Part shown: in pieces, positions 6,910-52,603 of the stretch
How the letters are laid out: every line of letters starts with the position of its first letter
Numbering within the stretch: the stretch's first letter is position 1
NCBI GenBank assembly: GCA_963748805.1
Contig: CAVVLH010000006.1
Location: 36,186 to 100,185, forward strand
Direction: 5' to 3'
Origin: an uncultured Alphaproteobacteria bacterium
GTDB lineage: Bacteria; Pseudomonadota; Alphaproteobacteria; Rhizobiales; Xanthobacteraceae
Length of the DNA stretch: 64,000 bases
Made by a program: the position numbers and the translations under genes
The notes under the pieces: model-generated
What the model was told of the DNA's origin: nothing
The model's input: the letters and a program-made list of their open reading frames with translations, nothing else
Database searches by the model: none

Positions 6910-9178
<2,269 letters not shown>

Positions 9179-9722: not shown

Positions 9723-10286
9723 TTGACAGGTGCGCCGTTGAATAGTGGTGGTGCTTCTGACGGACAGGGCGCCGAGGGCGCCCGCAAGCAGGATGATACC
9801 GACAAGCCGCAATGGCGCCGGCTGGCGCCGCCCCTGATCGCGGCGGTGGTAGCGGGCGTTGCGATCGCTGCGGTACTCTCGCCGCAAAGATCGAACGGAG
9901 AAGGCGCGGAACTCGCCAGCGTCGCAGGCTCCCAGATCGAATCCGCCGCAACCACCATGGATCTGGTCGCCGCCTCAGACGCGGTAGAAGATGCCAAGCG
10001 CTGCCGCATACCGCTCGCCCAGATCACGCTGGCCGCAGCCTCCGGCTCAACCTCAACGATCCGCGTCCGTTCCGGAAGCTATGTGTCGCCGTCCTACGTC
10101 TTGACAGATCAACCGCAGCGCATCGCCATCCCCTTCCCGGCGGCCTATCCGAGCGGCCGCGGCGTCATTTCGGTCGAAGGCCAGGCGCAGAATCTCGCCG
10201 TTGCCCTCACTCCCACCTGGAAAGTAAACTCCCTGACCGGCACGGCAGTCATGAACGTGATCTGGACTCCGAAAACCGGCTGCTAA
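9723..10286 (+). CDS. Hypothetical single-pass membrane protein
   Basis: Hydrophobic LIAAVVAGVAIAAVL segment followed by a beta-rich domain; start uncertain (TTG at 9723 or 9738). Confidence 0.7.
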   Translation: MTGAPLNSGGASDGQGAEGARKQDDTDKPQWRRLAPPLIAAVVAGVAIAAVLSPQRSNGEGAELASVAGSQIESAATTMDLVAASDAVEDAKRCRIPLAQITLAAASGSTSTIRVRSGSYVSPSYVLTDQPQRIAIPFPAAYPSGRGVISVEGQAQNLAVALTPTWKVNSLTGTAVMNVIWTPKTGC

Positions 10287-10387
10287 AGCGCGATGAGATT
10301 TGGCTGAATCGTTATCGCGCTTTAGTTCTTTGATGAAGCATGATCTCTTCGGAAAACCGCTTCACACTTTTCCGGATCATGCTTTAG
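10283..10387. repeat. CIR/RIME-like twin-hairpin intergenic repeat, copy 1
   Basis: CTAAAGC...GCTTTAG ends, two internal hairpins, GAATC at 10306; near-identical inverted copy at 25343-25448. Confidence 0.85.
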
Positions 10388-10412
10388 TGGAGCGGATTTG
10401 ATGTTTGCTACC

Positions 10413-10574
10413 CTAGTGTCCCGATTCCGAAGTTCGTATTATTTTACGGAGCCGCGTTTCGAACTTCGAAATCGAAAGGACACTAGCAAACCTGTTGATC
10501 GAGTGTGGCTTTGGTTCAGAAGTCCGCATGACGAACTCGCGGCGATCATGATGCGGACTTCTGAACCGCCACAC
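10413..10574. repeat. CTAG-bounded twin-hairpin composite element (hairpins 10413-10486 and 10500-10574)
   Basis: ctagtgtccc-gattccgaagttcg...cgaacttcgaaatc-gaaa-ggacactag, a 13-bp core, then gtgtggc-ttt-ggttcagaagtccgcat...atgcggacttctgaacc-gccacac. Confidence 0.8.
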
Positions 10575-10606
10575 GACAATCGGACCACTCGTGAAGCGAG
10601 CGCGCA

Positions 10607-11743
10607 ATGAGCAAGTTCTTCGCCGACCGTCCCCTGCTTGGCTTTCTGATCGTGTCGGTTCTCGCTGCCCTGATCAGCGCCTGGGTATTGAACCCGCAAT
10701 CAAGCCCGATCGATTCCATCAAGGCGTTGATCAGCGGGCTGAACCTCGCCAGGTCCGTCGCGGGCGTGCTGATCCTGCTCGCGGGCGCGGGCATCACCTA
10801 CGTCGCCTGGCGCCTCGGTGGCGATCCGACCGCGATGGGTCTGGTGCCGGCCGGAGCAGGTTATACCGTCGGCCGCCGGCTGACCGTCACGATGCCGGAT
10901 TCAACGACCAAGGTCGTCGCCCGAACGGCAGACGATGCTCTCAACGATCTGGAGAACATGATTGGCCTTGCCCCCGTCAAGTCGGAGGTCAACAAGCTGC
11001 TTGCCAGTCTGGAGATCGAACGCAAGCGGCGCGAACAAGGCCTGCCGGTTGCGCCGACCAGCCGCCACATGGTGTTTACCGGGCCGCCCGGCGTCGGCAA
11101 AACCGTGGTCGCGCGCGCGCTGGGTGAAATCTACAGCTCGCTCGGCGTGCTGCGCAAAGGTCACCTGGTCGAGACCGATCGCGGCAAGGTGGTGGCCGGC
11201 TATATCGGCCAGACCGCGATCAAGATGCTCGAAGTCTGCAAGTCCGCCCATGACGGCATCCTGTTCATCGACGAAGCCTATGCGCTCGCCAGCGATCCGG
11301 GACTTGGTTCGGACTTCGGGCGCGAGGCGATCGACACGCTGCTGAAATATATGGAGGACAATCGCGACCGCATTATCGTGATCGCGGCCGGCTATCCCGA
11401 CGAAATGCGGAAGTTCATCGGCAGCAATCCGGGGCTTGCCAGCCGTTTCACCAAGACCATCAACTTTCCGTCTTACGATGCGTCGGAGCTCGCCGCGATC
11501 TTGCAGGTGATGGCCAAGCAGCAGGGATATTTACTGCCTGAGGGGTTTGAGCCGAAGTTCAAGAATTGGGTCGATGCCGAGCGCAACAGTTCGGACTGGG
11601 GCAACGCGCGCTCGATCCGGACCCTGCTCGAAAAGGCGCGCGAGGCTCACGCGGTCCGCAGCTATTCGGACCCCTCCGCCGACGTGTCGAAGCTCGAACT
11701 TGCCGACCTGGAAAGCGCCTATGGCGCGACGGGATATAAATAA
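10607..11743 (+). CDS. Membrane-anchored AAA+ ATPase, CbbX/CfxQ/SpoVK/EccA family
   Basis: Two N-terminal hydrophobic segments; MIGLAPVK, HMVFTGPPGVGKT (Walker A), ILFIDEAY (Walker B), NPGLASRF. Confidence 0.9.
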   Translation: MSKFFADRPLLGFLIVSVLAALISAWVLNPQSSPIDSIKALISGLNLARSVAGVLILLAGAGITYVAWRLGGDPTAMGLVPAGAGYTVGRRLTVTMPDSTTKVVARTADDALNDLENMIGLAPVKSEVNKLLASLEIERKRREQGLPVAPTSRHMVFTGPPGVGKTVVARALGEIYSSLGVLRKGHLVETDRGKVVAGYIGQTAIKMLEVCKSAHDGILFIDEAYALASDPGLGSDFGREAIDTLLKYMEDNRDRIIVIAAGYPDEMRKFIGSNPGLASRFTKTINFPSYDASELAAILQVMAKQQGYLLPEGFEPKFKNWVDAERNSSDWGNARSIRTLLEKAREAHAVRSYSDPSADVSKLELADLESAYGATGYK

Positions 11744-13386
11744 TGACCGGGCTTGCGTCGCGACTGGCAGCGCTGCATGGCGGTCTCTGGGCGATCGACC
11801 CCTGGTATCAGCGCAGCTGGTTTGTCGCACCGCCTGCCATCGCGCTGGTATTGGCCGGATGGATGATGGGCGACGCGCGGATGCCGGCAAACGCGCCTTG
11901 GGCGAAACCTGGAACCTCGGCGCCGAACGGTCCCGCCGCGCCGCCGGCAAACAACAAACCGCCATCACCGCAGGCGCAGACGTGCCGGAGCGACGACGTC
12001 GACAAGAATGTGGGCCTGGCTGCCTGCAACCAGGCGCTGGCGGAAACCGGTCTCGATACCAACACCCGTTCCGACCTTTTGACCCGCCGGGCCTTTCTGC
12101 GCAACCAGACGCCGGAGGCTCTCGCCGACCTCAATGAGGCGCTTCGGCTCAATCCGAACAATTACTGGTCGCTGGCACGGCGCGGCGCCCACTTTCTGGG
12201 CGAACGTGATTTCACCCGTGCCGCAGCCGATCTCAACAAGTCGATCAGCCTGAATCCCACGTACCAGTACGCGTTGCAGGTCCGCGGCGATATGTATTAC
12301 CAGCAGCAACAATACGACCTCGCCATCGCCGATCTCACAGAGGCGATCAAAATCGATAGCACGTTGACCCGGGCCTATTATCTGCGCGGCCTCGCCGAAT
12401 TCACCAAAGGCCTCTATGCCGCCGCGGCGCGCGACTTCGACGAATATCACAAGCTCAATCCATCGGATGTTGCCGGCCTGCGTTTCCGCGGCAATTCCTA
12501 CGCCTATGCCGGCCAGCGCGACCAGGCCATCGCGGATTTCAGCGAGGCGCTGCGGATCAACCCGCGCGACCAGTTCGCACTGGCGCTGCGCGCCCGCGCC
12601 TACTACTGGCAAAAGAAATTCGATCAGGCTTTCTCGGACGCCAACGAAGCCCTCGCCATCGACGCCTCGATGTCCATCGCCAGCGAAGTCAGAAGCTGGA
12701 TCAATTTTGATCGCGGCAGGTACGAAGCCGCGATCTCCGATCTGAACAACGCCATCAAGGCCGGTGCCAACCTTGACGAGTTGCAGACCCGCGGTCGCGC
12801 CTTGATGGCGACCGGGCAACTTGAGGCCAGCTATCGTGATTTCAAGCAGGCCGAGCAGATGGATACCAAGGCCGGCTACACGCAGTACCTGCTCGGACTG
12901 GTTTCGGAGCGCCGCGAAAATGCGCGGGTTCACCGCTGCATTGCCGGGGAAGGTGATGCGAACTGCTCGCGTATTCCCGATTATACCGAAACGATGGCGT
13001 ATTTCTCCAGAGGCATCGATCTTTCGCCGAACTTCGCACCTTGCTATTTTGACCGCTCGCGCATCTTGATGGCGCAGCGGCAGTTCGATCGCGCCAATGC
13101 CGATATCGAGACCGGCCTCAGGATCGATCCGAATAACTCCGAAGGCTATCTCGCGCGGGGAAACCTGTCGTTGACCCTGGAACGCTGGCGGGACGCGATC
13201 GATGACTACACGCGGTCCATCGGCATCAATTCAAAATCGGCCATGGCCTTCCTCAACCGCGGTCAGGCCTATCTGAAATTGAACGAACGCAACAATGCCA
13301 TCAGCGACTTGCGATCGTCCTATTCGCTCAATTCAAGCAACGACTATACGAGGAATCTTTTACGCTCGCTCGGTCAACGGGTCTGA
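11743..13386 (+). CDS. Membrane-anchored tetratricopeptide repeat protein
   Basis: N-terminal TM (IALVLAGWMM), Pro-rich linker, many TPR units (A..D...A..L.P....A...RG); TAATG overlap with the ATPase stop. Confidence 0.9.
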   Translation: MTGLASRLAALHGGLWAIDPWYQRSWFVAPPAIALVLAGWMMGDARMPANAPWAKPGTSAPNGPAAPPANNKPPSPQAQTCRSDDVDKNVGLAACNQALAETGLDTNTRSDLLTRRAFLRNQTPEALADLNEALRLNPNNYWSLARRGAHFLGERDFTRAAADLNKSISLNPTYQYALQVRGDMYYQQQQYDLAIADLTEAIKIDSTLTRAYYLRGLAEFTKGLYAAAARDFDEYHKLNPSDVAGLRFRGNSYAYAGQRDQAIADFSEALRINPRDQFALALRARAYYWQKKFDQAFSDANEALAIDASMSIASEVRSWINFDRGRYEAAISDLNNAIKAGANLDELQTRGRALMATGQLEASYRDFKQAEQMDTKAGYTQYLLGLVSERRENARVHRCIAGEGDANCSRIPDYTETMAYFSRGIDLSPNFAPCYFDRSRILMAQRQFDRANADIETGLRIDPNNSEGYLARGNLSLTLERWRDAIDDYTRSIGINSKSAMAFLNRGQAYLKLNERNNAISDLRSSYSLNSSNDYTRNLLRSLGQRV

Positions 13387-37429: not shown

Positions 37430-37596
37430 CTAGTGTGGCAACTCTGACGTTCCTTTCAGGGCCACCGTGAGTTCTTCGAAGGAACGTCAAAGTCAAAGCC
37501 ACACTAAAATCATATGGTTGCTAGTGTCCCTTTGGTTCTGACATTCGTAAAAGTTGCCGCCGCGATAGGATACGAATGTCAGAACCGGGACACTAG
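37430..37596. repeat. CTAG-bounded twin-hairpin composite element (hairpins 37430-37507 and 37521-37596)
   Basis: ctagtgtggc..ctgacgttcc/ggaacgtca..caaa-gccacacta, a 13-bp core, then ctagtgtccc-ttt-ggttctgacattcgt/acgaatgtcagaacc-gggacactag. Confidence 0.8.
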
Positions 37597-37618
37597 GGTG
37601 GTGGCAGGAAACCGTCGC

Positions 37619-39698
37619 ATGCTCTCCTCCACTGCCCAAAATTTCGCCTATCAGCAGACCCTCGTCGCATTTGCAGGTGCCGTGTGCCTGTTCGGCACCT
37701 GGATTGGTATGCGCCACTTCGCCCGCGCCCGCGCCACCGAAGGCGCGACCCGGCGCGGCTGGCTGTTCATGGCTTCCGTCGGCACCGGCGTGGCGCTGTG
37801 GGCCTCGACCTTCATCTCGATCTTGGCGCTCGATCCCTTGCTGACCAGCGGATTTGAACCGGTCGCCACCGGCGCGGTCCTCGTCATCGCGGTCGTCGCC
37901 TGTTTTGTCGGCTTTGAGATCGGCAGCCGGCACTTTACCCTCGCACCGGAAACCGGCGGCCTTGCGATGGGCGTCGGCATCGTTGCGATGCATCTGGTGG
38001 GTTTCAACGCCTGGCATATCAAGGGCAGTTTCGAGTGGAACGCCTATGGCCTGGCCACGACTCTTGTGCTCGGACTGGGCTTGAGCGCACTCGCCGTCAA
38101 CCGCGCCAACCGTCCGGTCACACGCTGGTGCCGCCATGGCGCCGCCATCGTGCTCGCTTTCATGATCTGCGTCATGCACTACGCGCTGACTGCTTCGGTC
38201 GCGGCTGTACCTGATGCCTCCGTGATTCTGCGGGCTGACCTCGTGCCCGCCGATACACTTGGCATCGCCGTGGTCGCAGCCGTTCTCCTGGTCATGGGCA
38301 ACGGCTTTTCGACCTATATCATCGACCTGCGCGCCCGCACCGAGTTCGGCCGACCGCATCCACCAATTGTCGTTCAACGACACCATGACCGGGCTGCCCA
38401 ACCGCATCGCCTTCAACGAGCGGCTCGCCTTTGACAGCGCCGAGGCTCACGAAAAGGCGCACAAGCTCGCGGCCTTCTCGATCGACCTCGACGGCTTCAA
38501 GGACATCAACGATCTCTATGGCCACGGCGCCGGCGACCTGCTCCTGATCGACGTGGCGACACGGATGTGCAAGCGGCTTGCGCCGGGTGAATTCCTGGCG
38601 CGCCAAAGCGGCGATGAATTCCTGGCCTTGACGACCTCACGCAATCACCCGGATGACGCCTATGCGTTTGCGGAGCGGATCTCGCAGGCCTTCGCCGAGC
38701 CCTTTACGGTTCAAGGCTACGCCGTCCGCCTCACCGCCTCGATCGGCTTTTCGGTGTTTCCGACCGATACGCCGGAGCGCGACCAGTTGCTCAGCAACGC
38801 CAAGCTCGCGATGCACCGGGGCAAGAGCGGGCAATCCGGCTCGATCTGCATGTACAGCCCCGAAATGGACGACAGCGCCCGCAAGCGCCGCGCGCTCGCC
38901 CGCGATCTCGAACATGCGGCGGAGCGCCACGAACTGCTGTTGAACTATCAGCTCCAGATGTCGCTCAATGACGGCAAGATCTGCGGCGCCGAAGCCTTGA
39001 TGCGATGGAAGCATCCGAAACTCGGCATGGTTTCGCCGGCGGAATTCATTCCGCTGGCCGAAGAAACCGAGGCGATCTTCGAAATGGGCGAATGGGCGCT
39101 GCGCGCCGCCTGCCGCGACGCTGCGGAGGGAAAAATTCCCGGAAACGTCGCGGTCAACCTCTCGCCGGTCCAGTTCGGCCGCGAGGATCTGGCCGAGATG
39201 ATCCACGGCATCCTGCTGGAAACCGGCCTGCCGCCGGCGCGTCTTGAGGTCGAGGTCACGGAATCGACCATCATGTCGGACCAGAGCCGCGGCCTGCACA
39301 TCCTGCGCAAGCTGAAAGCCATGGGCATCACGGTGGCGATGGATGATTTCGGCACCGGCTATTCGTCGCTGGCGACGCTGCACGCCTTCCCGTTCGACAA
39401 GATCAAGCTCGACCAGTCCTTCGTCAAACGGCTGCCGCACGATGCGGCCGCTGCCGCCATCGTCCGTACCGTGCTGGCGCTCGGCGAAAGCCTGCGCATG
39501 CCGGTTCTGGCCGAGGGTATCGAGACCGAGGCGCAATGGGATTTCCTGGCGCGCGCCGGCTGCGCCAAGGGCCAGGGCTATCTGTTTGCAAGACCGGCGG
39601 CGGTGTCGCAATTGTCCACTGTGATCAGCGCGGCGGCCCGATTTACCCGCGAGGCGCTGCCGGCGGCCGACGTCGAGCACGCCACCGTCGCGGCGTAG
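37619..39698 (+). pseudogene. MHYT-GGDEF-EAL c-di-GMP signalling protein, +1 frameshift near 38345 (real lesion or sequencing error)
   Basis: MHYT motifs (IVAMHLVG, VMHYAL) in one frame; DTMTGLPNR, SGDEF, EAL and DDFGTGYSS in the next; removing one T from GAGTTCGGCC gives RTESADRIHQL. Confidence 0.88.
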
Positions 39699-40657: not shown

Positions 40658-40703
40658 GCCGCCGAAGGGCTGTTAAGTGATCCACCGGAAAGCTTTCAAA
40701 ATC

Positions 40704-41615
40704 ATGCGCAAAGCGTTGACCGCACTTTGGCCCTCCGGTTTGTGCGTGGTGCTCGTTTGTCTGGCGCAGACGGCATGGACGGCCGAAACTACGCCGGCGT
40801 GGCATGCTGATCTTGCCGAAATCCGCCAGGTCGCCGGGATGATCCCGGGGCCTCGGCCGCTGCGCGTCAACGTGGTCAAATTCGCCGAGAGCCGGCGCAC
40901 GAAGAATTTCGCGGTCAAGGGGCTGCCGGCCGAGCCGAGCGTGCAGGCGCGCACCGCCTATCAGATCGTTTATGCCGACGGCACCATCATGGTCGATACG
41001 GGCATGGATCTCGCCACCCATCGCTTCTTCGGCCGCGGCGTCGATGAGCCGTACTTTCCGGAAACCGAGGCGCGCGTGGCCTTCGCTTTGCAAAAAGCAA
41101 AGGCGATCATCGTCACCCATGAGCATGGCGACCACATTGCCGGCCTGATCAAGAGCCCGTCTTTCAACGAACTCGCGCCGAAGACCGTGCTGACGCGCGC
41201 GCAACTGGAGACGCTGCTTGGCGAGCCACAGATGCCGGAGCTGCGGCCGACGCCCGAGATGGCGTCGCGCCTTCGGGTGATCGACTACACCAACACGATG
41301 GCGTTTGCGCCGGGCATCGCGCTGATCAAGGCGCCCGGCCACACGCCGGGTTCGCAGATGGTCTATGTCGCCCTGCAATCGGGCAAGGAATTACTGCTGG
41401 CCGGCGATGTCGCCTGGCACATGGACGGCGTGCGCTTGAACAGAGGCAAGGACGCGCCGTGGATCAAGGAGCCGGCGGAGCTGATGGCCGCCGAGCTCGA
41501 CTGGCTCAACGGCCTCAGCCAAACCGGACACAACCTGTCGATCGTCATCAGCCACGATGAAGAGCAACGCCGCGCCTATATCGAGCAAGGCGTGCTCGGC
41601 GACGGATTCGAGTGA
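40704..41615 (+). CDS. Secreted metallo-beta-lactamase-fold hydrolase
   Basis: Signal peptide; VDTG, THEHGDH, APGHTPGS, LAGD, SHD. Confidence 0.9.
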   Translation: MRKALTALWPSGLCVVLVCLAQTAWTAETTPAWHADLAEIRQVAGMIPGPRPLRVNVVKFAESRRTKNFAVKGLPAEPSVQARTAYQIVYADGTIMVDTGMDLATHRFFGRGVDEPYFPETEARVAFALQKAKAIIVTHEHGDHIAGLIKSPSFNELAPKTVLTRAQLETLLGEPQMPELRPTPEMASRLRVIDYTNTMAFAPGIALIKAPGHTPGSQMVYVALQSGKELLLAGDVAWHMDGVRLNRGKDAPWIKEPAELMAAELDWLNGLSQTGHNLSIVISHDEEQRRAYIEQGVLGDGFE

Positions 41616-41686: not shown

Positions 41687-43769
41687 TCAGTGCCACATGT
41701 GCTCGAATTGATGATGGTGACCGAAGCCGTGATCGGAGAACTCGTTGCCTCCGGTCTCCACGATGGGCGGAGTTCCATTGCTCCCCTGGCCCGCCGGCGC
41801 CGCCGTTGCCGGCACCACATGCCCCACCGTTACCTGCACCGTTGCCACCAGCCGCGCTGCCGGAGTTACCGCTGATCGCCGCCGTCAACGTCGCGACGGC
41901 CGCGCTGATCGCGCTCGAATGACCGCCCTCCAGGGCCTGCACCAGACTGGCGATATCGCCGGCGATCGCACTCGAAAGCGCTGACGTCGAAGTACCCCCT
42001 GAAATCGGTCCCGGAACCGGAGCCGCCAGAACCGGAGCCGCCGGCCGTGTGACCGGCATTCGGATCCGGATTCGAGACCCCAAAACCGTTATTGGCCAAT
42101 CCGTCGACCGGATTTGCCGTTGGGTTATCGTTACCATCAACCGCGCCGGAAACGGGAACGGTGGTGCCCGCGGTAGCGGCGCCTGTCGTGGTGGCACCCG
42201 CGACAGTCGTCGCAGTGCCCACGAATGAGCCGCCTCCGGTCGGCAAATTGTTGCCTGAGACGTCATTGGCGTCGGCGACAAATCCAACTCCCGCCGCGAC
42301 CAGCTGAGCTGCGTTGGTTGCGTTCAGACCGTTGGCCTCGACGCTTTGCAGCGCGGACACCGCATTCGCGGTATCCGTCTTGAGCGTGCCAGATAGCAAT
42401 TCATTGTCGAACCGGTCACCGAAGACCCCGCCTTGCGAACCGGTGAAGCTCGCCCCAAACTCGTTGTAATTATTGATCTGAGTGATCAGCGACTGGACCT
42501 CCGAAGCGGTCGGCTGAACCGTCCCGTTGGCAATACCGCCAAGCGTCGTGTTCAACTGATTGGCTTCCGCAATGAACTGTGACCAGAAATTGGTTTGAGC
42601 CTGGTTGTCCTGAAATTGCAGAATGGTGCCGCCGTGGTCGTTCACCCCGCCGATGCCGTTGAGATAGCCGGGCATCTCACCAAATCCGCCCGTACTCGCG
42701 CCGAACGTCTGATTTGGCTGCGCGCCGTTGTTGGCAACCGAAACATCGCCGGCCGCGGTCGCCAAGGCCGCATCGTTATTCACGATATCGACGATGTCGA
42801 GAATGTTGTCATTCGTCGATCGGGCGGCGTCGTTGGGATTGGTCGCATACATCGGGTCGAACTTGTTGATCTGAAGTTCAACCTGATTGAGCGCCGTTTC
42901 GAGATGAATCGTCGTCAGGGCCTGTTCCTGCTGAGCCGTCAGCGCCTGCCCTTGCGGAGACATGCCCGCCTGCTCATTCGCCTCGATGCCTGCGAGTGCC
43001 GTTGGACTGTTGAGGATGTTTGTAAGGCCCGTCACCACCGCCTGCATGTCGGTGTTGAACTCGGTGAGATTGTTCGCATTCAATCCCCCCACCTCGAGAT
43101 CGTGGGCAGCGTTGAAGACGGAACCGATCTGCGCAAGCGTCGGAGGCGCCGCGGCTGAACCCTCGGCCGATGCGGAGACTTCGCGGCTGAATCGCTTCCC
43201 GTCGGCAGCGCCTGGAACCCTACATTGGTAAAGCCGGTCCCGCTTTGATACGCCGCCCCGTTCAACGCGCTTGCCAGCGTGGCATCACCGTTCACCTCCG
43301 ACAGAATTTGCTGTTGAGTAAGCGCGATCGTTCCTTGCGCCGCTACCTCCGCCGCGCTGTTGCCAACCGACAGCGGCGCCTCATGCTGTAGCGTCGCCAA
43401 CTGACCCTGAATCGTCTGAAGTTCGGTAATCAAGGCCGGATCTGTAATCGCCTGACCGCCAACGGTAATTGCATTCGGATTCGCCAGCATCGCGCTGACA
43501 TCAGCCTGCACGGCGTTGACGTCTTGCAGATACATCGGCTCGTAGGGCTGTTCGTTGCTGCCGCTTGCCGCCTCGATCGCCGTCGAACCTGTCCAGAGCC
43601 CGCCATCGGAAAGGCGGACCGCGTCGTTGAAGACCGCGCCGGCCTGCGCCAGATCGGTCGACGTGTTCAAAGCGCTTTCAATCGTCGTCGCGTAGTTGTT
43701 GCCGACCTGGGTGATCGATACCCCATCCAGCCCTTCGGTATCCCGGATCGTCGTTGGAACTGTGATCAT
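41687..43769 (-). pseudogene. Large acidic helical/Gly-rich protein, probable T1SS substrate; three single-base indels (~43182, ~42002, ~41789)
   Basis: GAGAGG RBS; four consecutive frame segments join into one ~690-aa ORF ending DHGFGHHHQFEHMWH-TGA at 41687; no signal peptide; very few Lys/Arg. Confidence 0.75.
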
Positions 43770-44200
43770 GATGTCCTCTCTTACGCTGGCCCGCTGCCCC
43801 CGGTCAGCTTATGAAATACGTGAGATCAGGCGCATGGTGCCGGCAGGCCAAGCATCGCCTCGTAACAGCAAGCGCATTGTTTGCGGCGACTGTGTCAGGT
43901 TGGCGGCCTTGAGATGCCACAGCTCGGGTATTGTCTGGACGATAATGAACTGACAACGAAGCGTCTGCGAGCAAGCCGCTGCGCCCGGACATGCGACAAC
44001 GGTTCGCCGCCATCCTCGTGCCTCGAAATCACACTCACTCCGTCACCGATGTCACAATGCGGCGAAACAAACGTCACGGGGCGGGATGGAAATGTGCCTG
44101 CAAGGTTCGAAAAATAAGGCGGCGCCATCTGCCGGCTGCGCGAACGGACAATGTTCCGCTCGCGTCGGATTGTGGCAAATATCGAAATTACGAAAACGAT

Positions 44201-46117
44201 TTACTGCTCGACGAAAGCCCGGCGCATCTGATCGGCGATCGGCTTGAACAGATAGCTCATCATCGTCCTGCTCCGCGTCTGCATGAAAACTTCGGCAGGC
44301 ATTCCAGGCACGAGCTGTTGACCGGCGAGTCGCCGGCGTTCCTGGTCCGACAGGACAACTCTCACCGTAAAGTAAGGCGCGTTGGTCTGCTGGTCACGGC
44401 TCGTGTCGGCCGAAACATAGGAGACGGAGCCGGTGAGTTGCGGCGTCACGCGCTGATTGAAAGCCGAAAACCGGACAAAGGCCGATTGGCCGGTGCGCAC
44501 CTGGTCGATGTCCTTGGGCTGCAACCGCGCCTCGATCTGCAAGTCTTCGGTATCAGGAACGATTTCCATGATGGTATCGCCGGCGCGGATGACCCCGCCG
44601 ATGGTGTGCGCGGCAAGCTGGTGAACGATACCGGCCACCGGCGCGTGGATCTCGATGCGGTCGAGCAGGTCGCGCGCCGAAACGCTGCGTTCGACAAGTT
44701 CGGCCTCCTTGCCCTGGGCTTCGCCAAGCTCTTTCACGACATCGGTGCGAAAATCCTGATCGGCGCGGACCATCTGCAACTGAGTCTCGCCGATCTTCGA
44801 TTTCGTCTCGGCGATTGACGAGACGATCTGCCCGCGCTCGCCGTCGATCCGCGCGGATTCCCGCTGCAACGTCGTCAGCCGGGTCAGCGGAACCAGGTGC
44901 TTGTCATACAGCTCCTGCACGCCGGTCAGCTCGCCCGCAATCAGCTCCAGTTGCCTGGCCTTGGAATCAAGCTGGGCCTGTAAGCCCACGATCTCCTCGG
45001 TCAATTGCGCAACCTTGCCCTGCAACAGATCTTTCTGGCTTTGGCGCGCGGTCAGACGAGCCTTGAACAGCGAATCTTCCGACGCCAGCAGGCTTTTCAC
45101 TGTGTCGTTGCCCGATCGCGATGCGAGCCCCGCGGGAACTTCTATGCGAGCAAGACCATCGCGCTCGGCCACGAGACGAGCGATCTTCGCCCCCAACTCA
45201 TCGAGCTGCTTGCTCACCATTTGCAAGCCGGCACGCGCCTGGGTCGCGTCCAGCCGCAACAGCAGCTCGCCCGGCTGCACCCGGCTGCCATCCTGCACAC
45301 CGATTTCGGCGACAATGCCTCCGGTCGGATGCTGGATATTCTTGACATTCGATTGCACGACGAGATTGCCGGGAACGACGACCGCGCCTGCGAGCGGCAC
45401 GAACGCCGCCCACCCTCCACCCAGAATCCCGCCGACGAGGAGAACCCGCAGGCCGACGCGCAGTTCGTGTTCGAACGCCCATCGAACGCCCGTCTGCAAG
45501 CTGTCATCGGCCGCATCCGCAGGAGGCAAAGCGCCGTCACGATCGAGAATAAAGGCGGCGCCGGCCACCAGACCGTTACGGCACTGGCCGATCAGCTCCA
45601 TAACCGCCGCGTTGGGCTTCGGCGGGGCGGCGGATGCGACAATGCGCTCGCCTTCAATTTCGGACGGAGGCGAATCCTCGTGCGCGGTCATGTCTGGCGC
45701 GGGATGACGCAGATCCATATACACCGGATCGCTCTGGAAGATCGGCGGACTCTGCCCGTGCAGCGGCGGCACGGCCGACTCGACCGACGGATTGCTGCGG
45801 CTATCAGCCTGGACGGGAGGATTGATGCCAAACGACTTCAGGCAGATGTCAATCGCAAGCTTGACCGTGCTCTTTGGCTTTCGCCTCGGACGCAGCGGCT
45901 GTGGTTTGCGAGGCGCTTGACGTTTCCGCGCCTCACCGCGCCCGGACGGGCCGGCTGGACGCCGACCGTCGCCGCGCTCACCGTCGAGCGCCTGGCGCAA
46001 ACGCTGAAGTTCGAGGATGAGCGCCTCCCCCTGTGGTCCGACGCGGTCCACACCCGGCTCGCCACTCCCGTTCCGATCAGATCCGTCGAGATGTCGATGA
46101 TCCCTTGAGTACGGCAT
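44201..46117 (-). CDS. HlyD/PrtE family type I secretion membrane fusion protein with a long N-terminal extension
   Basis: GAVV.PG....SNVK.IQHPTGG.V, LLRLD.T, I.AP.AG.V, LVPGMPAEVF..T..RT..SY; ATG 2 bp after the ATPase stop. Confidence 0.92.
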   Translation of the reverse strand: MPYSRDHRHLDGSDRNGSGEPGVDRVGPQGEALILELQRLRQALDGERGDGRRPAGPSGRGEARKRQAPRKPQPLRPRRKPKSTVKLAIDICLKSFGINPPVQADSRSNPSVESAVPPLHGQSPPIFQSDPVYMDLRHPAPDMTAHEDSPPSEIEGERIVASAAPPKPNAAVMELIGQCRNGLVAGAAFILDRDGALPPADAADDSLQTGVRWAFEHELRVGLRVLLVGGILGGGWAAFVPLAGAVVVPGNLVVQSNVKNIQHPTGGIVAEIGVQDGSRVQPGELLLRLDATQARAGLQMVSKQLDELGAKIARLVAERDGLARIEVPAGLASRSGNDTVKSLLASEDSLFKARLTARQSQKDLLQGKVAQLTEEIVGLQAQLDSKARQLELIAGELTGVQELYDKHLVPLTRLTTLQRESARIDGERGQIVSSIAETKSKIGETQLQMVRADQDFRTDVVKELGEAQGKEAELVERSVSARDLLDRIEIHAPVAGIVHQLAAHTIGGVIRAGDTIMEIVPDTEDLQIEARLQPKDIDQVRTGQSAFVRFSAFNQRVTPQLTGSVSYVSADTSRDQQTNAPYFTVRVVLSDQERRRLAGQQLVPGMPAEVFMQTRSRTMMSYLFKPIADQMRRAFVEQ

Positions 46118-46119
46118 GA

Positions 46120-47940
46120 CTAGACACGCTCTGGCGCTGTGGCGTGGCGCGGAGCGGGGCCAGGCGCGGTGCGCGGCTGCGGCCGGACTGGCGCACTTTG
46201 CGTCCTGGAGCCACCGACGCGGGCAAACACCTCCTGGCACGAACCGAAGGCGATCGACTTTCCTTCGTAAAGCACGAGAGCCATGTCCAAGGCGGCAATC
46301 ACGCTTGGACGATGCGATATCACGATCACGATGCTCTTGTTCTGCCGCAGGATCTGAATGGCGCGGCTCAACGCGTTCTCGCCGTCGGTATCCAGATTGG
46401 CGTTGGGCTCGTCGAGCACGACCAGAAACGGATCGCCATAGACCGCGCGTGCCAGTCCTACTCTTTGCCGCTGGCCCGCCGACAGCGAAGAGCCGCTCTG
46501 ACCGATCTGGGTCGAATAGCCGTTGGGCAACCGCACGATGAGATCGTGCACGCCCGAGATCTGCGCCGCCTTTATAATCGCCTCTGAAGTCGCGCCCTCG
46601 TCGAAACGACAGATATTTTCGGCGATCGTACCGTCAAACAGAGCGACGTCTTGCGGCAAATAGCCGATATGCCGTCCGAGATCCTCGCTTCGCCACTGAT
46701 CGATCGCCGCGCCATCAAGTCGAACCGCCCCGCCCTTGGCCGGCCAAATTCCGACCAGCGCCTTGGAGAGCGAAGTCTTGCCGGATGCGCTGGCTCCGAG
46801 CAGGGCCAATCCCATGCCGGCCTTGAGCGAGAAGCTGACGCTCGAGACGATGGGCATGTCGGTAGCGGGTGCGGTAACCGTGAGCTGCTGGACCGCGAGT
46901 TCGCGGCACGGACGCGCCAGATGAACTGCCGGAACAGGAGGTCTCGCCGTTACCTTGCAAACCTCGCGCAGCCGCGCGATGCCCTGGCGTGCGGCGACAA
47001 GCTGCTTCCAGCTGGATAATGCGACCTCGACCGGCGCCAACGCCCGTCCCATCATGATCGACGAAGCGATCATGATGCCGCCGGAGGCGCTGTCGGTGAC
47101 CACCAGATACGCCCCCATCCCCAACATGCCGGATTGCAGGACATAACGCAGCACCTTGGCACCCGAGCCTAGATTGGCGAAGAGGTCGCTGGCGCGCATG
47201 TTTTCCCGCAGGTATCGCTCGTTCGATTGCGACCACCGCGCCTTGAATCGATCCGTCATGCCGAGCGCACGAATCACCTCGGCATTGCGCTGGATGGTGC
47301 CCAAGAGCTCCTGCCGCTGAGCGCTGGATTCTGTCGCGGACTTCGCCGCATCGCGCGACAGGCGCTCGGTCAGGAACATCATGGCCACGATGGACGCGGT
47401 CCCGATCAGCGCGGTGACGCCGATCGCGGGATGAAACAGAAACAGTCCAATCAGGAAAATGGGAATCCAGGGCATGTCCAGGAACGCCGTCGGCCCCATG
47501 CCCGACATGAAGGCACGAACCTGCTCGAGATCACGCGACGGCTGCTGCATCGCCGACGGTTTCACGCCGCGAAGCGGCAGCGTCACCAACGCATTGTGGA
47601 TCGCCTCCTGAAGGCCGACATCGAAAAGCGTCGCCACACGGCACAACATGCGTGATCGCAGCGCTTCGAAATATCCCTGTATCAGGTAGGCCAGCAGCAC
47701 CATCAGCGAGAGACCCGACAGTGTTGCGAGATTCCGGCTCGGAATGACGCGGTCGTAGACCTGGAGCATGTAGAGAGAGCCGGACAGCATCAACAGATTG
47801 ATCACGCCGCTGAACGCGGCGATGCCGGTCATTCGTCGCGCGCTCTCCCGCAAACCGTGCAAGACCGGATCACCCGCCGCCGAGGCAGCCAGCAGACTGC
47901 GCGGGCCGAACCGTAACGTCTGTCGCAAACGATCCTGCAC
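46120..47940 (-). CDS. Type I secretion ABC permease/ATPase (PrtD/AprD type, no C39 domain)
   Basis: INLLML.GSLYMLQVYDRV, FLD.PW.P.F, GASASGKT, LSAGQRQR, VLDEPNANLD; GTG start with AAGGAG RBS. Confidence 0.94.
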   Translation of the reverse strand: MQDRLRQTLRFGPRSLLAASAAGDPVLHGLRESARRMTGIAAFSGVINLLMLSGSLYMLQVYDRVIPSRNLATLSGLSLMVLLAYLIQGYFEALRSRMLCRVATLFDVGLQEAIHNALVTLPLRGVKPSAMQQPSRDLEQVRAFMSGMGPTAFLDMPWIPIFLIGLFLFHPAIGVTALIGTASIVAMMFLTERLSRDAAKSATESSAQRQELLGTIQRNAEVIRALGMTDRFKARWSQSNERYLRENMRASDLFANLGSGAKVLRYVLQSGMLGMGAYLVVTDSASGGIMIASSIMMGRALAPVEVALSSWKQLVAARQGIARLREVCKVTARPPVPAVHLARPCRELAVQQLTVTAPATDMPIVSSVSFSLKAGMGLALLGASASGKTSLSKALVGIWPAKGGAVRLDGAAIDQWRSEDLGRHIGYLPQDVALFDGTIAENICRFDEGATSEAIIKAAQISGVHDLIVRLPNGYSTQIGQSGSSLSAGQRQRVGLARAVYGDPFLVVLDEPNANLDTDGENALSRAIQILRQNKSIVIVISHRPSVIAALDMALVLYEGKSIAFGSCQEVFARVGGSRTQSAPVRPQPRTAPGPAPRHATAPERV

Positions 47941-48062
47941 GGTGTTCCCCTCTCCTTCGTCTCCTCGTCGTGCGCCAGTCCAATTTTCTTTTGGCGACAG
48001 ATGCTGTCCATTTTCCGGCAGCAATTGGACCGTAGACAGTCGCTGCTGCGGCTTTCTGGCCG

Positions 48063-48231
48063 CGAGTGCCCACTTTCCGAAGTTCGTGCTCCATTGCGGC
48101 ACCCACCGTCACGAACTTCGGAAAGTCATGGGCACTCGTAAGCTTATTGATTCTAGTACCGCTTCATCGATCTGAAGTCCTTGATCGAATTCGCGGCTGG
48201 TGGTGCAGGGACTTCAGATCGGCGGTACTAG
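48063..48231. repeat. CTAG-bounded twin-hairpin composite element (hairpins 48063-48138 and 48153-48231)
   Basis: cgagtgccc-actttccgaagttcgtg/cacgaacttcggaaagt-cat-gggcactcg, a 14-bp core with GATTC, then ctagtaccgc..gatctgaagtcc/ggacttcagatc-ggcggtactag. Confidence 0.78.
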
Positions 48232-48857
48232 GATCGATCAAGCGGACCAACTCGAAGAGTTCACTTGTGGACACGCGCGGCTTTGCGCGGCACGAAGCTG
48301 CGGCAGGTGCGCCCAAACATGATGCAGCAAAGCTGCCGCGTGCCACGATCGAGGCCATAGAATCGTCCGGCTATCACCTTGCTTCAGCGCGCATTGGCCG
48401 CTGTCTCGGCCGATTGACGCCACGAAACTGAATAAACCTTTGTGTCGTTCCGCCGGCGGCGTTGATCGATTTCTCCCAGGCCGACGACGATACGGACAAC
48501 AAGGAAAAACAAGACAAGGAAAACAAAATGGAGCGCTTGGCGTACGAAGCGAATGCATCAGTTAGTATGAGGATCAGCAGGTAACCAACCACGCGCAGAT
48601 AGGCTCGTCGTTCGCAGCGGGGCGTCGCTGTCCGGACGATTCGACTGCGCGTCGACGAAAAGGAGACGATTTTATTCGCCGGCCAGGCGATCTCTGATTT
48701 TGGGGAACGGACAGTTGAGTAAGCGTCGCTATGGAACCGCAAAGCCGCGCCCGGAAAACTCCGGTGCAAGATCGCGCTGCGCACTTGCCCGGTGCGCGAA
48801 GGCCGCGCGCCGCAGCGGAATCGAAACTCGCCGCATTCATGAAAAGGGAGCGCGCGA

Positions 48858-50669
48858 GTGAGACAACGCAGGACCGACTACGGCACAATCTTCTTGCACT
48901 GGCTGCTTGTCGCAGCCATCGGGGCCGCTTTCGTCAGCGGGCTTCGTATCGCAACGGAGGCGCCAAGCCGAACGTGGATCAATCTGTTCGACGTGCTGTT
49001 GCCGCGGGCCAATGTCTGGACCCTGCACATCGAAGCGGCGGTGGCACTGGTCGCGATTGCGGTCGCCTATACGGTCTATTTGACCCGATCCGGCCTGAGC
49101 CGCCGCGTGCAACTGGACAAGATTCGCCTGCGTGCCCTGATAGGACGAAAGCAGGGCCGGCTTGGTGCGGTCAGCGTCCTGCTTTCGTGGTTCTTCTTCC
49201 TCACCATGGCAATCCTGATCGTCAGCGGCGGCCTTCTCTATTTTGGCCTGCTCGCGGGCCAAAGTGTTGCGGCCGCACATTGGTGGGCGAGCTGGGCAAT
49301 TCCGGTCTTCACTTGCCTGCATATCCTTGTCCAGATTCTGATCGGCGGGACGTCGCAGCTTCTTCGTATTTTTCGTCCCGGACCCCTGCCGCCCCCTCCG
49401 CCTCGCCTTGATGCCGTGGAGCTGCTCACACTGCTCGCCGAACAGTCCGGGCAACCGGCAGCACAACCGCGGCAGCAGCCGCAGCGAAAGCCGAAAAGTG
49501 GCAGCCCGGCAAGGCAGCGCGACGTCACCCTGCAAGCGAACCCTCTCATCGTTGCAACGTCGGTCGCGATCCTGGGCACCTGGGTCATGATCGCGACGGA
49601 CTGGCTGATGGTCGACGGCTTGCGCATCCACCGCGTCTCCAGCGCGCAGGCTCCGATTCTTGACGGCGACACCTCCGATCCGGTCTGGCGCAACATCCAG
49701 CCGTTCTCCGTGATGACCAATCAGGGCGACAATTTCGACGGCAAGGGCGAAACCAGGATCAACATTCGCGCGGTGCATGACGGCGTCTGGGCGTATTTCC
49801 TGTTCGACTGGGAGGATCCGACGCGGTCGTTGAAGCAACTGCCGCTCATCAAGCGGGCTGACGGCTGGCAACTGCTGCATGACGGCTATGAGAGGGGCGA
49901 CGAGCACGCCTTCAATGAAGACAAGTTCGCTGTCCTGTTTACGACGCTGGACCTGACGCTGGCGGGCGACCACACCTTCCATGCGGGTCCGCAGCCGATC
50001 GACGGTGCGCCCCAGACCATGACCGGAAGAGGCTTGCACTACACATCCGCTGCCGGAGTTTACGCCGACGTGTGGCAATGGAAGGCCACCAGCACCGGCC
50101 CAAGCGGCTGGATGGACGATGATCATTTCGGTCCGCCGCTCGAGCCTACCCCCGCGCAATTACAAAACGCCGCTCCCTACCGGGGCGGGTTCGAGCCCGA
50201 CCCTGGCACCGCGAACTATTCCAGCAATTTCGACGCGACGCTGGATCCGGCAGACCGCGATCAAGTGGTGAGGCCGCGGCGTCTGCCGAAAGATCTCGCC
50301 ACGACGTCAGCGGCCATGGGCGCCATCGATCTCGATCCGGAGGTCGGCGAGAACGACGGCGCGCGCTGGTTCATGACGGAGGTCGATTCCGTTCCTTATA
50401 CGAAAGAGATGGACCGTCAGATCCCCGTCGGCACCGTCATTCCCGGGGTCATCATCTCCGGGGATTTTTCAGGCGACCGCGCCGACGTTCGATGCGCCGG
50501 GCGATGGGCCTCCGGACATTGGTCGCTCGAGGTCGCGCGGCGCCTCGATACGCACAGCCAATTCGACGTGCCGATCAAGACGGGCGTCTTCATGCGCGTC
50601 GCGGCATTCGACCACAGCCAGATCGCACATACGCGGCATGTCCGGCCCATTCGTATTGAGGTGGAGTAA
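48858..50669 (+). CDS. Di-heme cytochrome b fused to an ethylbenzene-dehydrogenase-gamma/DOMON-like heme-binding domain
   Basis: Four TM His (FLHW, TLHI, AAHW, CLHI); a fifth TM; then P.LDG...DP.W, F.WEDPT, EDKFAV, D.WQWKA, WSLEVARRL.T. Confidence 0.82.
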   Translation: MRQRRTDYGTIFLHWLLVAAIGAAFVSGLRIATEAPSRTWINLFDVLLPRANVWTLHIEAAVALVAIAVAYTVYLTRSGLSRRVQLDKIRLRALIGRKQGRLGAVSVLLSWFFFLTMAILIVSGGLLYFGLLAGQSVAAAHWWASWAIPVFTCLHILVQILIGGTSQLLRIFRPGPLPPPPPRLDAVELLTLLAEQSGQPAAQPRQQPQRKPKSGSPARQRDVTLQANPLIVATSVAILGTWVMIATDWLMVDGLRIHRVSSAQAPILDGDTSDPVWRNIQPFSVMTNQGDNFDGKGETRINIRAVHDGVWAYFLFDWEDPTRSLKQLPLIKRADGWQLLHDGYERGDEHAFNEDKFAVLFTTLDLTLAGDHTFHAGPQPIDGAPQTMTGRGLHYTSAAGVYADVWQWKATSTGPSGWMDDDHFGPPLEPTPAQLQNAAPYRGGFEPDPGTANYSSNFDATLDPADRDQVVRPRRLPKDLATTSAAMGAIDLDPEVGENDGARWFMTEVDSVPYTKEMDRQIPVGTVIPGVIISGDFSGDRADVRCAGRWASGHWSLEVARRLDTHSQFDVPIKTGVFMRVAAFDHSQIAHTRHVRPIRIEVE

Positions 50670-51703
50670 TGACAAAGATTTGCAAGGTGACCTTCAACAA
50701 AGAGACCTTTCTGATGAATTGCGGTGATCTCCTGCTCGACGGCGCGCTGATGAGCGGCGTCGATCTGCCCTACGATTGCCGCAGCGGCATTTGCGGGTCC
50801 TGCCGGGTGCGTCTTGAGGAAGGCAAGGTATTCGGCGGCACCGATGAGAGCAGCGACATGATCCACGCCTGTCAAGCGCGGGTCGTCTCCGATCTCAAAG
50901 TGGTCGCCGAGCCTACACCAGATCCGGTTTCGATACCGGCGCGGGTGTCCGAAATGGTCCGGCTCGCGCCCGATGTCATCGGCGTCGGCCTCGAGCTCCA
51001 GCAGCCATTCCGGCATCTGCCGGGCCAATATTGCAAATTGCAATTCCGCGGTTTCGCGGAACGATGCTATAGCGCGACCTACCCCCTCGAAGGCGCCCCG
51101 AATAATCGCCGGCTGCATTTTCACATCCGCCGCCTGCCGGACGGCGCCGTATCATCGGCGCTCGGAAGCAAGATCTGTGTTGGCCATCGCGTCAGGCTGT
51201 CGGGCCCGTTCGGCAGTGCATTCCATCGGCGCGAACATCATGGTCGCATGGTCCTGGTCGCCAGCGGGACGGGGTTCGCACCGATGTGGGCGATCGCGGC
51301 CGCCGCCATCACCGAGCGGCCGCAGCGCGAGCTGACCTTTGTGGTCGCCACCCGAAAGCTGAAGTCGTTCTACATGCACAGCGCGTTGTGCCGGCTGGCA
51401 CGATTTCCCAATGTCACCATCGTTCCCGTCGTATCGGAACCGCAGAGCGTCTCGTTTGCCATCAGAAGCGGACGACCGGTCGACTACCTGCCTGAACTGT
51501 CGCCGGAAGACATCGTCTATACGGCGGGTGCGCCCGCCATGACCGACGCTGTGGCAGAGATCGCGAAGGCGGCGGGCGCCAGATGCTACACGGACCCGTT
51601 CTCGCCTAACGATCAAGGCGGAGATTCCTCCGGCCTGATGGCGCGTTTCGTCGGCTGGCTCGACGGTTCCAGAAAGAGCCCCGAAGTTCTGCACGCCGCT
51701 TGA
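50669..51703 (+). CDS. 2Fe-2S ferredoxin:FAD/NAD(P)H oxidoreductase
   Basis: CRSGICGSC...ACQ cluster motif, RCYS (FAD), GPFG, ASGTGFAP; TAATG overlap with the upstream gene. Confidence 0.92.
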   Translation: MTKICKVTFNKETFLMNCGDLLLDGALMSGVDLPYDCRSGICGSCRVRLEEGKVFGGTDESSDMIHACQARVVSDLKVVAEPTPDPVSIPARVSEMVRLAPDVIGVGLELQQPFRHLPGQYCKLQFRGFAERCYSATYPLEGAPNNRRLHFHIRRLPDGAVSSALGSKICVGHRVRLSGPFGSAFHRREHHGRMVLVASGTGFAPMWAIAAAAITERPQRELTFVVATRKLKSFYMHSALCRLARFPNVTIVPVVSEPQSVSFAIRSGRPVDYLPELSPEDIVYTAGAPAMTDAVAEIAKAAGARCYTDPFSPNDQGGDSSGLMARFVGWLDGSRKSPEVLHAA

Positions 51704-51736: not shown

Positions 51737-52603
51737 CTAGTTGCTCAGTCGTTCAATCACCAAATCCAGCAGCGCCCGCAATCGCGCGAGCTTCTTCAGG
51801 TCGCGATGGTAGCCGACATAGGTATCGCGCCGGGGCGGCTCTTCCCCAAGATCGATCCGCCTTACGCCCAGAAGCGCATCCCCTATCGGCCGCGGAAGCA
51901 CGGCGACGCCCGCCCCGCATGCGCACATCCGCGCCTGGACGTCGCGATTGTTGCTGCGCGAGACCACATGGCCGTTGGGCAAGACCTTCCGAAGCCAGAC
52001 CGCGTCTGGCATGCCGGCGAAATTGACATCGAGGGTGATGAGCGGCATTCCCCCGCCGTCGCCGGGATGTGGCGCCTCGATATCCGATTTGAGGTAGGCC
52101 CCGTAAGGAATGGTCATCAAGCGCCGCGATATCACCTCCGGCTCATCGAACGGCCGGATCCTGAACACCATCTCGGCTTCCCGCCGGGGCAGGCTGTAGA
52201 GAATCTCACTGGTCAGCAGTTCGACAACGACGCGCGGATGAAGTTTGGAAAATTCGGCGAACACCGGCGCAAGCATGTGAGCGCCAAACCAGTCGGACGA
52301 CGAAATGCGCAGCAACCCTTCCAGTTGCTGGTCTTCGCCGGCGAGCCTTCGCTGGAAGGCAAGGACTTCTTCCTCGATCCGCTCCGCATGCGAGAGCACG
52401 GCCTCACCTTCGTCGGTCAGGACGAAGCCATCGCCGGTACGCTGGAACAGGGTTTGGCCGACCGCCTCCTCCAGGGCCCTCAGCCGTCGGCCCATGGTCG
52501 GCTGACTTTGGCCTAACTTCTGGGCTGCGCCACTGAGCGTCCCTTCACGGGCGACAGCGAGGAAGATACGAAGATCGCTCCATTCCACCGAATGGTCCCT
52601 CAT
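51737..52603 (-). CDS. LysR family transcriptional regulator
   Basis: WSDLRIFLAVAREGTLSGAA..LG.SQPT.GRRL..LE...G..LF.R. Confidence 0.95.
   Translation of the reverse strand: MRDHSVEWSDLRIFLAVAREGTLSGAAQKLGQSQPTMGRRLRALEEAVGQTLFQRTGDGFVLTDEGEAVLSHAERIEEEVLAFQRRLAGEDQQLEGLLRISSSDWFGAHMLAPVFAEFSKLHPRVVVELLTSEILYSLPRREAEMVFRIRPFDEPEVISRRLMTIPYGAYLKSDIEAPHPGDGGGMPLITLDVNFAGMPDAVWLRKVLPNGHVVSRSNNRDVQARMCACGAGVAVLPRPIGDALLGVRRIDLGEEPPRRDTYVGYHRDLKKLARLRALLDLVIERLSN

Follow-up and report, generated by a model that had tools for sequence, protein, structure and literature searches.

What places a type I secretion system with a putative cargo protein next to the genes of a transmembrane electron conduit? 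The question is raised by a locus at positions 41687–51703 of a 64,000-nucleotide stretch of DNA (hereafter: the window) from contig CAVVLH010000006.1 of an uncultured alphaproteobacterium of the family Xanthobacteraceae (GenBank assembly GCA_963748805.1). Open reading frames (ORFs) and scans with Pfam and NCBIfam family models reveal five genes in two divergent groups: a cargo gene, an HlyD-family adaptor and a PrtD-type ATP-binding cassette (ABC) transporter on one side, and a cytochrome b/EB_dh fusion followed by a flavoprotein reductase on the other. The reading that we favor, tentatively and at somewhat short of an even chance, is that these genes form a single co-inherited module, in which the exported cargo and the conduit serve the reductive handling of metals. 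The features on which the discussion is based are listed below, in coordinates of the window.

41687–43769, minus strand: cargo gene (six-frame reading, DNA alignment to an intact orthologue, and family alignment).
44201–46117, minus strand: HlyD-family type I secretion adaptor, 638 aa (TIGR01843; Pfam HlyD_3 and HlyD_D23).
46120–47940, minus strand: PrtD-type type I secretion ABC permease/ATPase, 606 aa (TIGR01842; ABC_membrane and ABC_tran).
48065–48232, strand not assigned: interspersed repeat in the spacer, similar to miniature inverted-repeat transposable elements (genome-wide sequence matches).
48353–48440, plus strand: conserved 88-bp non-coding element (kept in 71 of the 80 loci described below).
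48528–48584, plus strand: 18-codon upstream ORF (frame, length and stop kept in relatives with layout A, described below).
48858–50669, plus strand: cytochrome b/EB_dh fusion, 603 aa (PF01292 and PF09459).
50669–51703, plus strand: 2Fe-2S/FAD/NAD(P)H reductase, 344 aa (Fer2, FAD_binding_6 and NAD_binding_1).

All five genes and their order are as given in the preliminary description of this DNA. The control region of about 900 bp, which that description placed between the two groups, measures 917 bp from prtD to the fusion gene, because the alignment of relatives puts the start of prtD at the GTG codon at 47940. The start of the reductase gene overlaps the stop codon of the fusion gene by one base and, judged from these reading frames, the reductase is translationally coupled to the fusion.

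The evidence that ties the two groups together is comparative. One genome per species was scanned for the fusion gene, which yielded 80 loci, mostly from isolates and metagenome-assembled genomes (MAGs) of Bradyrhizobium, with a few MAGs of Pseudolabrys or Xanthobacteraceae. Members that carry the block include strains ORS 278 and ORS 285, B. oligotrophicum, B. denitrificans, B. jicamae, B. lablabi, B. retamae and B. valentinum; ORS 278, ORS 285 and B. oligotrophicum are also among the named matches of the cargo family. The fusion gene is accompanied by the reductase gene in all 80 loci, by an orthologous prtD in 77 and by hlyD in 72, while an ORF of the cargo family lies within 10 kb of it in 65 (of the 15 loci without one, eight are short contigs). 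When all ORFs flanking the fusion gene in the 80 loci were clustered, no other gene family was found in more than 26 loci, and therefore the conserved unit comprises exactly five genes. Of 41 relatives, eight have the fusion gene, all of them congeneric, and these eight and no others have a member of the cargo family; two further congeners with the fusion gene also have an adjoining cargo gene. Thus, the co-conservation on which the preliminary description had made its proposal depend is borne out by the neighbourhood comparison, in which the five genes keep company across 80 species-level genomes. For pairs of loci, the identity of the fusion proteins rises and falls with that of PrtD (r = 0.91) and with that of HlyD (r = 0.93), although such correlated divergence could be explained by shared vertical descent alone. 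One locus labelled as Blastocatellia (DASTMP010000150.1) contains the complete module but groups within the Xanthobacteraceae on the fusion tree; a binning error is more probable here than a true acidobacterial carrier.

The order of the genes within the block is variable. In layout A, found in 27 loci including the window, the cargo gene is the last of the group prtD, hlyD, cargo, which is divergent from the fusion and reductase genes. In layout B (35 loci), prtD and hlyD alone form one group and the cargo gene directly precedes the fusion and reductase genes in the other, where, as its position suggests, it is apparently co-transcribed with the conduit. On the tree of fusion proteins, several lineages have layout B at their base, and layout A has at least two separate origins. 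The cargo gene has changed operon and yet stayed in the block, so a chance neighbourhood is hard to uphold.

The fusion protein is matched by the Pfam families PF01292 (1.9e-11, above the cut-off) and EB_dh (PF09459, 3.5e-35). Its cytochrome b part comprises helices 11–33, 53–78, 104–122 and 144–162, carrying His14, His57, His141 and His155, which are invariant in 27 fusion sequences with identities down to 52%; it thus has the four helices and four His residues of the PF01292 class, and two b-haems are predicted from the sequence. The cytochrome b part is followed by a basic, Pro-rich linker, a fifth helix (229–250) and a beta-sandwich of the EB_dh/DOMON-like type. Because the N-terminus and the linker are positively charged, the simplest topology would have the linker in the cytoplasm and the EB_dh domain in the periplasm. 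The AlphaFold model of the fusion is poor (predicted local distance difference test score, pLDDT, 53.9). With this low-confidence model Foldseek detected NxrC (7b04_C, 1e-7) and EbdC (2ivf_C, 4.8e-4), as well as CBM9 modules and, for the membrane part, FdnI (1kqf_C). The PF09459 match and the fold matches agree on the EB_dh fold, with the reservation that the model reaches a pLDDT of only 53.9. Family membership and fold suggest that the EB_dh domain binds haem, while the sequence matches of the fusion to solved chains are too weak to place the haem ligands. We found no genes for a molybdopterin-containing alpha subunit or an Fe-S beta subunit in the conserved block or its flanks.

The reductase has the complete set of Fer2, FAD_binding_6 and NAD_binding_1 domains, and its translation contains a plant-type CX4CX2C...C cluster as well as the RxYS and GTGxAP motifs. 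Its architecture is BenC-like, with a best NCBIfam score of 113 bits against a cut-off of 430, and it remains far below every equivalog cut-off; with no oxygenase genes beside it, it does not qualify as a class IB reductase of the BenC/AntC type. Domain and motif content argue strongly that the reductase, the cytochrome b part and the EB_dh domain are built as a one-way route for electrons from NAD(P)H to the periplasm. The potential of NAD(P)H lies far below that of b-haems, which cannot reduce NAD(P)+, and hence the flow of electrons would be directed outward. The annotation of bacterial cytochrome b/EB_dh fusions with a coupled flavoprotein does not go beyond "ethylbenzene dehydrogenase-related", and we found no role assigned to them in the literature searched. 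A more distant membrane EB_dh protein, lacking the cytochrome b part, is encoded in the region 8854–13070 of locus L112 (G159:C8:77000-96999), in a row with genes for a DUF1566/Lcl_C protein and a purple-acid-phosphatase-like metallophosphoesterase with PPC domains, and near a divergent PhoD phosphatase gene. This second recurrent context of the domain hints at a link to phosphate or metallo-phosphatase biology.

The cargo protein belongs to a family that matches no Pfam or NCBIfam model. The family is small, with 473 clusters at E <= 0.001 among 1.84 billion representatives. Its homologue in Bradyrhizobium sp. ORS 278 is BRADO3970. In public databases these proteins bear the names "hypothetical", "beta strand repeat-containing" or "trimeric autotransporter adhesin", the last of which is wrong. 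Across 47 sequences the family is acidic (median pI 4.15) with a median of zero Cys residues, the GG.G.D motif of repeats-in-toxin (RTX) proteins is missing in 42 of these 47 members, so that they do not qualify as RTX proteins by their repeats, and Pfam HemolysinCabind finds no match in the cargo. Reading of the translations by eye revealed no hydrophobic N-terminal stretch or signal peptide. By their sequence characteristics, these proteins would fit a non-RTX substrate of a type I system.

The most conspicuous feature of the family is found at the C-terminus, where all aligned members share a tail of the form HHxHHxW(G/H) with an invariant Trp residue. Variants of this tail include HHLHHTWG, HHFHHMWG, HHHQFEHMWH and HHFEMIWHHG; the last 40 residues contain a median of six His, and the conserved tail is preceded by a variable His-rich stretch. 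In layout B the N-terminus of the cargo is also rich in His, together with Pro. The AlphaFold model of the cargo (pLDDT 66.7) consists entirely of helices, the well-predicted ones forming three bundles, and no PDB structure matches it better than E = 0.34. A confidently modelled helix bears an invariant His (H288 in the protein of locus L021), and several Asp residues are invariant too. We also observed in-frame fusions, 1090–1602 aa in length, of two or three cargo units (L055:1111-4548, L059:783-5588 and L092:6357-9626), and contig C253 of genome G023 carries three tandem copies of a cargo-family gene; the gene thus tends to duplicate.

PrtD scores 660.6 bits on TIGR01842 (cut-off 510.15), which places it in the PrtD/HlyB group of ABC transporters, and its translation displays the Walker A, signature and Walker B motifs; the alignment of relatives makes the GTG at 47940 its most likely start. 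HlyD scores 381.3 bits on TIGR01843 (cut-off 208.65), as expected of an HlyD adaptor, and most likely starts, by the same alignment, with the ATG at 46117, immediately past the stop codon of prtD. Its single membrane helix (approximately residues 221–254) is preceded by an unusual cytoplasmic N-terminal extension of about 220 aa (window 45430–46117), which has no Pfam match, is alignable in 56 of the 72 loci with hlyD and is conserved in length. In type I systems the N-terminal end of the adaptor contacts the substrate, and for this reason the extension may recognize the unusual His-rich tail of the cargo. The preliminary description had stated that TolC is absent and must be supplied from elsewhere; there is indeed no TolC gene on this contig, and two TolC-type genes that score above the TIGR01844 cut-off are located elsewhere in the genome (C68:85487-86746 and C2:18272-19357).

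The earlier picture has to be corrected for the cargo gene. This gene had been treated as one reading frame, whereas six-frame reading of this assembly yields four pieces (43769 to ~43180, ~43178 to ~42005, ~42003 to ~41796 and ~41795 to 41687), the last of which ends in GHHHQFEHMWH followed by the stop codon. The intact orthologues in loci L021, L022 and L024 encode 690, 639 and 682 aa, respectively. DNA alignment with the L021 orthologue reveals insertions or deletions (indels) of +2 near 43179, +1 at 42004 and +7 near 41795. The extra base at 42004 lies within a GANTC site (GAATC is read as GAAATC), and a gene for an MHYT-GGDEF-EAL protein in the same window (37514–39698, plus strand) is split at 38345 by an extra T, again in such a site (GAGTTC here and GAGTC in L019 and L077). 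In Alphaproteobacteria GANTC sites are methylated by CcrM, and they are a known source of base-calling errors in long reads. The shared GANTC changes suggest, as far as sequence comparison can tell, that base calling for this assembly erred systematically at CcrM sites, and at least one break in the cargo gene, that at 42004, looks like an assembly artefact. Elsewhere in the genome, a TolC-type gene (C2:18109-19357) and a PrtD paralogue (C63:62359-64027) each consist of two abutting pieces in different frames, which fits assembly indel errors as well. In the nearest relative (L077:10001-11810) it is the fusion gene that is frame-broken, with a match length that is not a multiple of three and a frame change at the position equivalent to about 49577 of the window; therefore, MAGs of this series carry indel errors. 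We considered whether the cargo gene is a pseudogene and did not make this call, because breaks at GANTC sites recur and other genes of the genome are frame-split.

The spacer between the two groups contains the 88-bp element, which always lies on the strand of the conduit genes, at the head of the transcription unit of the cargo and/or conduit. Its mean column identity is 82%, compared with 50–60% for the flanking proteins. A weight-matrix scan of the whole genome found no further copy of the element, which argues against a site shared by a regulon, and Rfam gave no match. A riboswitch or other structured RNA was considered and rejected, since RNAalifold returned three pairs and no covariation; a three-stem hairpin proposed by ViennaRNA was likewise discarded, as it scored no better than shuffled sequences. 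Inspection by eye for sigma-54, CueR, Pho-box and extracytoplasmic-function sigma factor patterns gave weak and inconsistent resemblances, on which we do not rely. About 85–87 nt downstream of the element lies the ATG of the cargo gene in layout B and the 18-codon ORF in layout A. This ORF has a good ribosome-binding site and encodes the peptide MERLAYEANASVSMRISR, whose first residues resemble the start of the layout-B cargo (M-x-R-L/F-A-Y/H); it may be a relic of the cargo start or a leader peptide. The repeat of about 168 bp at 48065–48232, approximately 125 bp upstream of prtD, is partly self-complementary and has 54 matches throughout the genome, many of them partial, with 69–96% identity. 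It is not present at this site in the two nearest relatives (L019 and L077), and one relative has a copy at another place; at this site the repeat is genome-specific and lies outside the conserved module.

How could an exported protein and an electron conduit act in one process, as we infer from their linkage? We propose that the PrtD/HlyD exporter, with a TolC protein encoded elsewhere, would be dedicated to the acidic, Cys-free, His-tailed helical-bundle cargo, which on the evidence of gene neighbourhood is the likely substrate. Electrons from NAD(P)H would pass through the 2Fe-2S flavoprotein and the di-haem cytochrome b to the haem of the periplasmic EB_dh domain. Outside the cell, the cargo would capture or present an oxidized substrate, for which the conduit would provide the reducing power. 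The most plausible substrate would be a metal ion, for instance Fe(III) or Cu(II), bound by the His-rich tail, which often contains Met and Trp as well, and by the other His-rich stretches; reduction of the metal would serve release and uptake. This leading reading leans on analogy to two kinds of known proteins discussed below, the ferric reductases that combine cytochrome b561 with a DOMON domain (CYBDOM) and the secreted protein scavengers of metals.

Several observations weigh against it. The cargo gene is frame-broken in the window, and seven loci with full 10-kb flanks show no detectable cargo gene. A type I substrate exits the cell in one step while the EB_dh domain is periplasmic, so the two proteins need not meet. 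The fold of the EB_dh domain is shared by the sugar-binding CBM9 modules, and its haem binding is deduced from kinship. Neither an outer-membrane receptor nor an importer of metals at the inner membrane belongs to the conserved block. We detected no known binding site of a metal regulator, the iron control element (ICE) motif of Irr does not occur in the window, and the 88-bp element is unlike anything that could be named. Finally, in a phylum-wide sample of 400 genomes, the only full fusion beyond the clade comes from another family of the same order (46% identity), in a genome that has the reductase gene downstream, no adjoining type I system and no member of the cargo family anywhere. The conduit must therefore have a role that does not need the cargo, and so the conduit pair is the older unit, which the secretion half joined in the Bradyrhizobium clade. 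This qualifies the condition under which the preliminary description would have been refuted, namely that the two operons are adjacent only in one lineage: within the Bradyrhizobium/Xanthobacteraceae clade the association is not an isolated occurrence, and beyond that clade the conduit pair is indeed found without exporter or cargo.

Existence of the conduit without the cargo in another family is also what one would expect if the conduit performed redox chemistry of the envelope. NOX/FRE-type enzymes resemble the layout of an NAD(P)H flavoprotein and a di-haem membrane protein seen here, and the conduit could act as a split NADPH oxidase that reduces O2 to superoxide, or else reduce quinones or humics, with the cargo as part of the surface or matrix, or as an adhesin, either modified by this chemistry or protective against it. 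A cargo that is repetitive, may be doubled or tripled to 1090–1602 aa and looks like a generic array of helical bundles, similar to cytoskeletal linker proteins, would suit such a role. We nevertheless regard this explanation as unlikely: it accounts neither for the conserved His-rich tail nor for the other His-rich stretches, and the cargo lacks adhesin domains as well as RTX and Ig-like repeats. The composition of the cargo points in yet another direction, as HasA, which binds haem and is exported by HasDE, is also acidic, free of Cys and devoid of RTX repeats. With an exporter of the PrtD/HasD type and with the invariant H288 (L021 numbering) in a well-modelled helix, accompanied by several invariant Asp residues, the cargo could be a haemophore-like protein that binds haem via a conserved His in its helical bundle, while the conduit reduces haem or iron in the periplasm. 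However, the cargo resembles neither HasA nor any Pfam family, its model has no significant fold match to haem proteins, and neither a HasR-like receptor nor a haem importer is conserved in the block; we consider a haemophore quite unlikely.

If the two operons were independent and merely shared an island, their linkage would reflect common descent or co-transfer and not a common function. The occurrence of the conduit pair alone in another family would agree with this, and the correlated divergence of the proteins could be plain vertical descent, but conservation ends at the five genes and does not extend to the flanks, and the presence and absence of fusion and cargo match perfectly in a genus of which only about one third of the genomes carry the block. 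Moreover, the cargo gene switched operon on at least two occasions without leaving the block, and in layout B it sits between the shared 88-bp element and the fusion gene, which renders independence very improbable. Least credible, in our judgement, is an inward flow of electrons, in which the EB_dh haem would accept electrons from Fe(II), Mn(II) or reduced organic compounds presented by the cargo and pass them via cytochrome b to the quinone pool. Relatives within PF01292, such as FdnI and the cytochrome b of hydrogenases, do transfer electrons from the periplasmic side to quinone, and FdnI is the fold match of the membrane part of the fusion. Nonetheless, a coupled NAD(P)H-type flavoprotein, present in 80 of 80 loci, would be left without a role, given that b-haems cannot reduce NAD(P)+.

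The reductive metal handling that we prefer has partial parallels in known systems. CYBDOM proteins include CRR and HYP1 from Arabidopsis and SDR2/FRRS1 from mammals. Two reports on plant members describe them as ferric reductases acting on extracellular iron (PMC10784544, PMC10784552). The fusion shares with them a transmembrane di-haem cytochrome b joined to an extracytoplasmic domain of the DOMON superfamily, with haem in the EB_dh domain presumed here. In contrast to these eukaryotic proteins, its cytochrome b is a four-helix PF01292 protein and not a six-helix b561 (PF03188), its outer domain is EB_dh (PF09459) and not DOMON (PF03351), its likely electron source is a 2Fe-2S flavoprotein of its own that uses NAD(P)H, instead of ascorbate, and its gene is tied to a type I exporter and a cargo. 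By its Pfam content (PF01292 and PF09459 only), the fusion is not a member of the CYBDOM family, although it would work alike in our proposal. The gamma subunits EbdC (of ethylbenzene dehydrogenase), NxrC and SerC of type II DMSO-reductase-family enzymes, in which Met and Lys ligate haem b, have the same fold and family as the EB_dh domain (PF09459 at 3.5e-35; 7b04_C and 2ivf_C); here, however, genes for alpha and beta subunits are missing nearby, and a membrane cytochrome b is joined to the domain, which in the gamma subunits is a soluble protein. Another parallel is MsrQ, a membrane b-haem protein that receives electrons from the cytoplasmic NAD(P)H flavin reductase Fre and passes them to the periplasmic acceptor MsrP. 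A cytoplasmic flavin reductase would likewise feed a membrane b-haem protein with a periplasmic acceptor in our system, but the membrane protein is of another family (it has no match to the ferric-reductase domain), there is no molybdoenzyme partner, and the reductase has a 2Fe-2S domain of its own and is translationally coupled to the fusion.

On the secretion side, a close parallel is HasA, a cargo that captures a small molecule, carries a C-terminal signal and is exported by HasD, HasE and HasF. Both systems combine a PrtD-family exporter and an HlyD-family adaptor with an acidic, Cys-free, non-RTX cargo; unlike the Has system, the block described here encodes a cargo unrelated to HasA and, in place of HasR and a sigma/anti-sigma pair, a reductase. 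Metal uptake is also the task of other extracellular proteins with His-rich sites, such as Pra1 in fungi and MopE/CorA in methanotrophs. In cyanobacteria, the secreted ZepA protein serves metal uptake and contains His-rich sites (PMC10957091). ZepA differs in its export, which proceeds via Sec and PEP-CTERM and not via a type I system, and none of ZepA, Pra1, MopE and CorA is linked to a transmembrane NAD(P)H-driven reductase or shows sequence or fold kinship with the cargo.

The preliminary description recognized no described system with this combination, and in the literature that we searched we found no description of such a pairing of secretion system and transmembrane reductase either. 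Each part is of a known kind, while the cargo family, the HlyD extension, the 88-bp element and the obligatory pairing of exporter and reductase are, as far as we could find, undescribed. It is possible, though rather doubtful, that the locus represents a new uptake or redox system, with the cargo as a protein "metallophore" or redox partner, a CYBDOM-like reductase, and a portable five-gene cassette under control of the 88-bp element. A linkage that has been rearranged repeatedly and never dissolved provides the first concrete handle on both the fusion and the cargo family, and it suggests a process that depends on an exported protein as well as on reducing power delivered across the inner membrane. 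If reductive metal capture were confirmed, it would constitute a protein-based alternative to siderophores and chalkophores in Bradyrhizobium from acid soil and peat and in photosynthetic stem-nodulating strains, and a bacterial counterpart of the CYBDOM ferric reductases of plants and animals. The hypothesis is open to direct test, as several cultured strains that are not pathogenic carry the block.

Two neighbours of the module deserve mention. A comparison of flanks across loci places the adjacent LysR gene (51737–52603) outside the conserved block. On the other side, next to the cargo gene, positions 40677–41615 encode a secreted-looking protein with the metallo-beta-lactamase fold, not conserved with the module, whose sequence is weakly similar to acyl-homoserine lactone (AHL) lactonases (50 bits on the AiiA model, the cut-off being 375).

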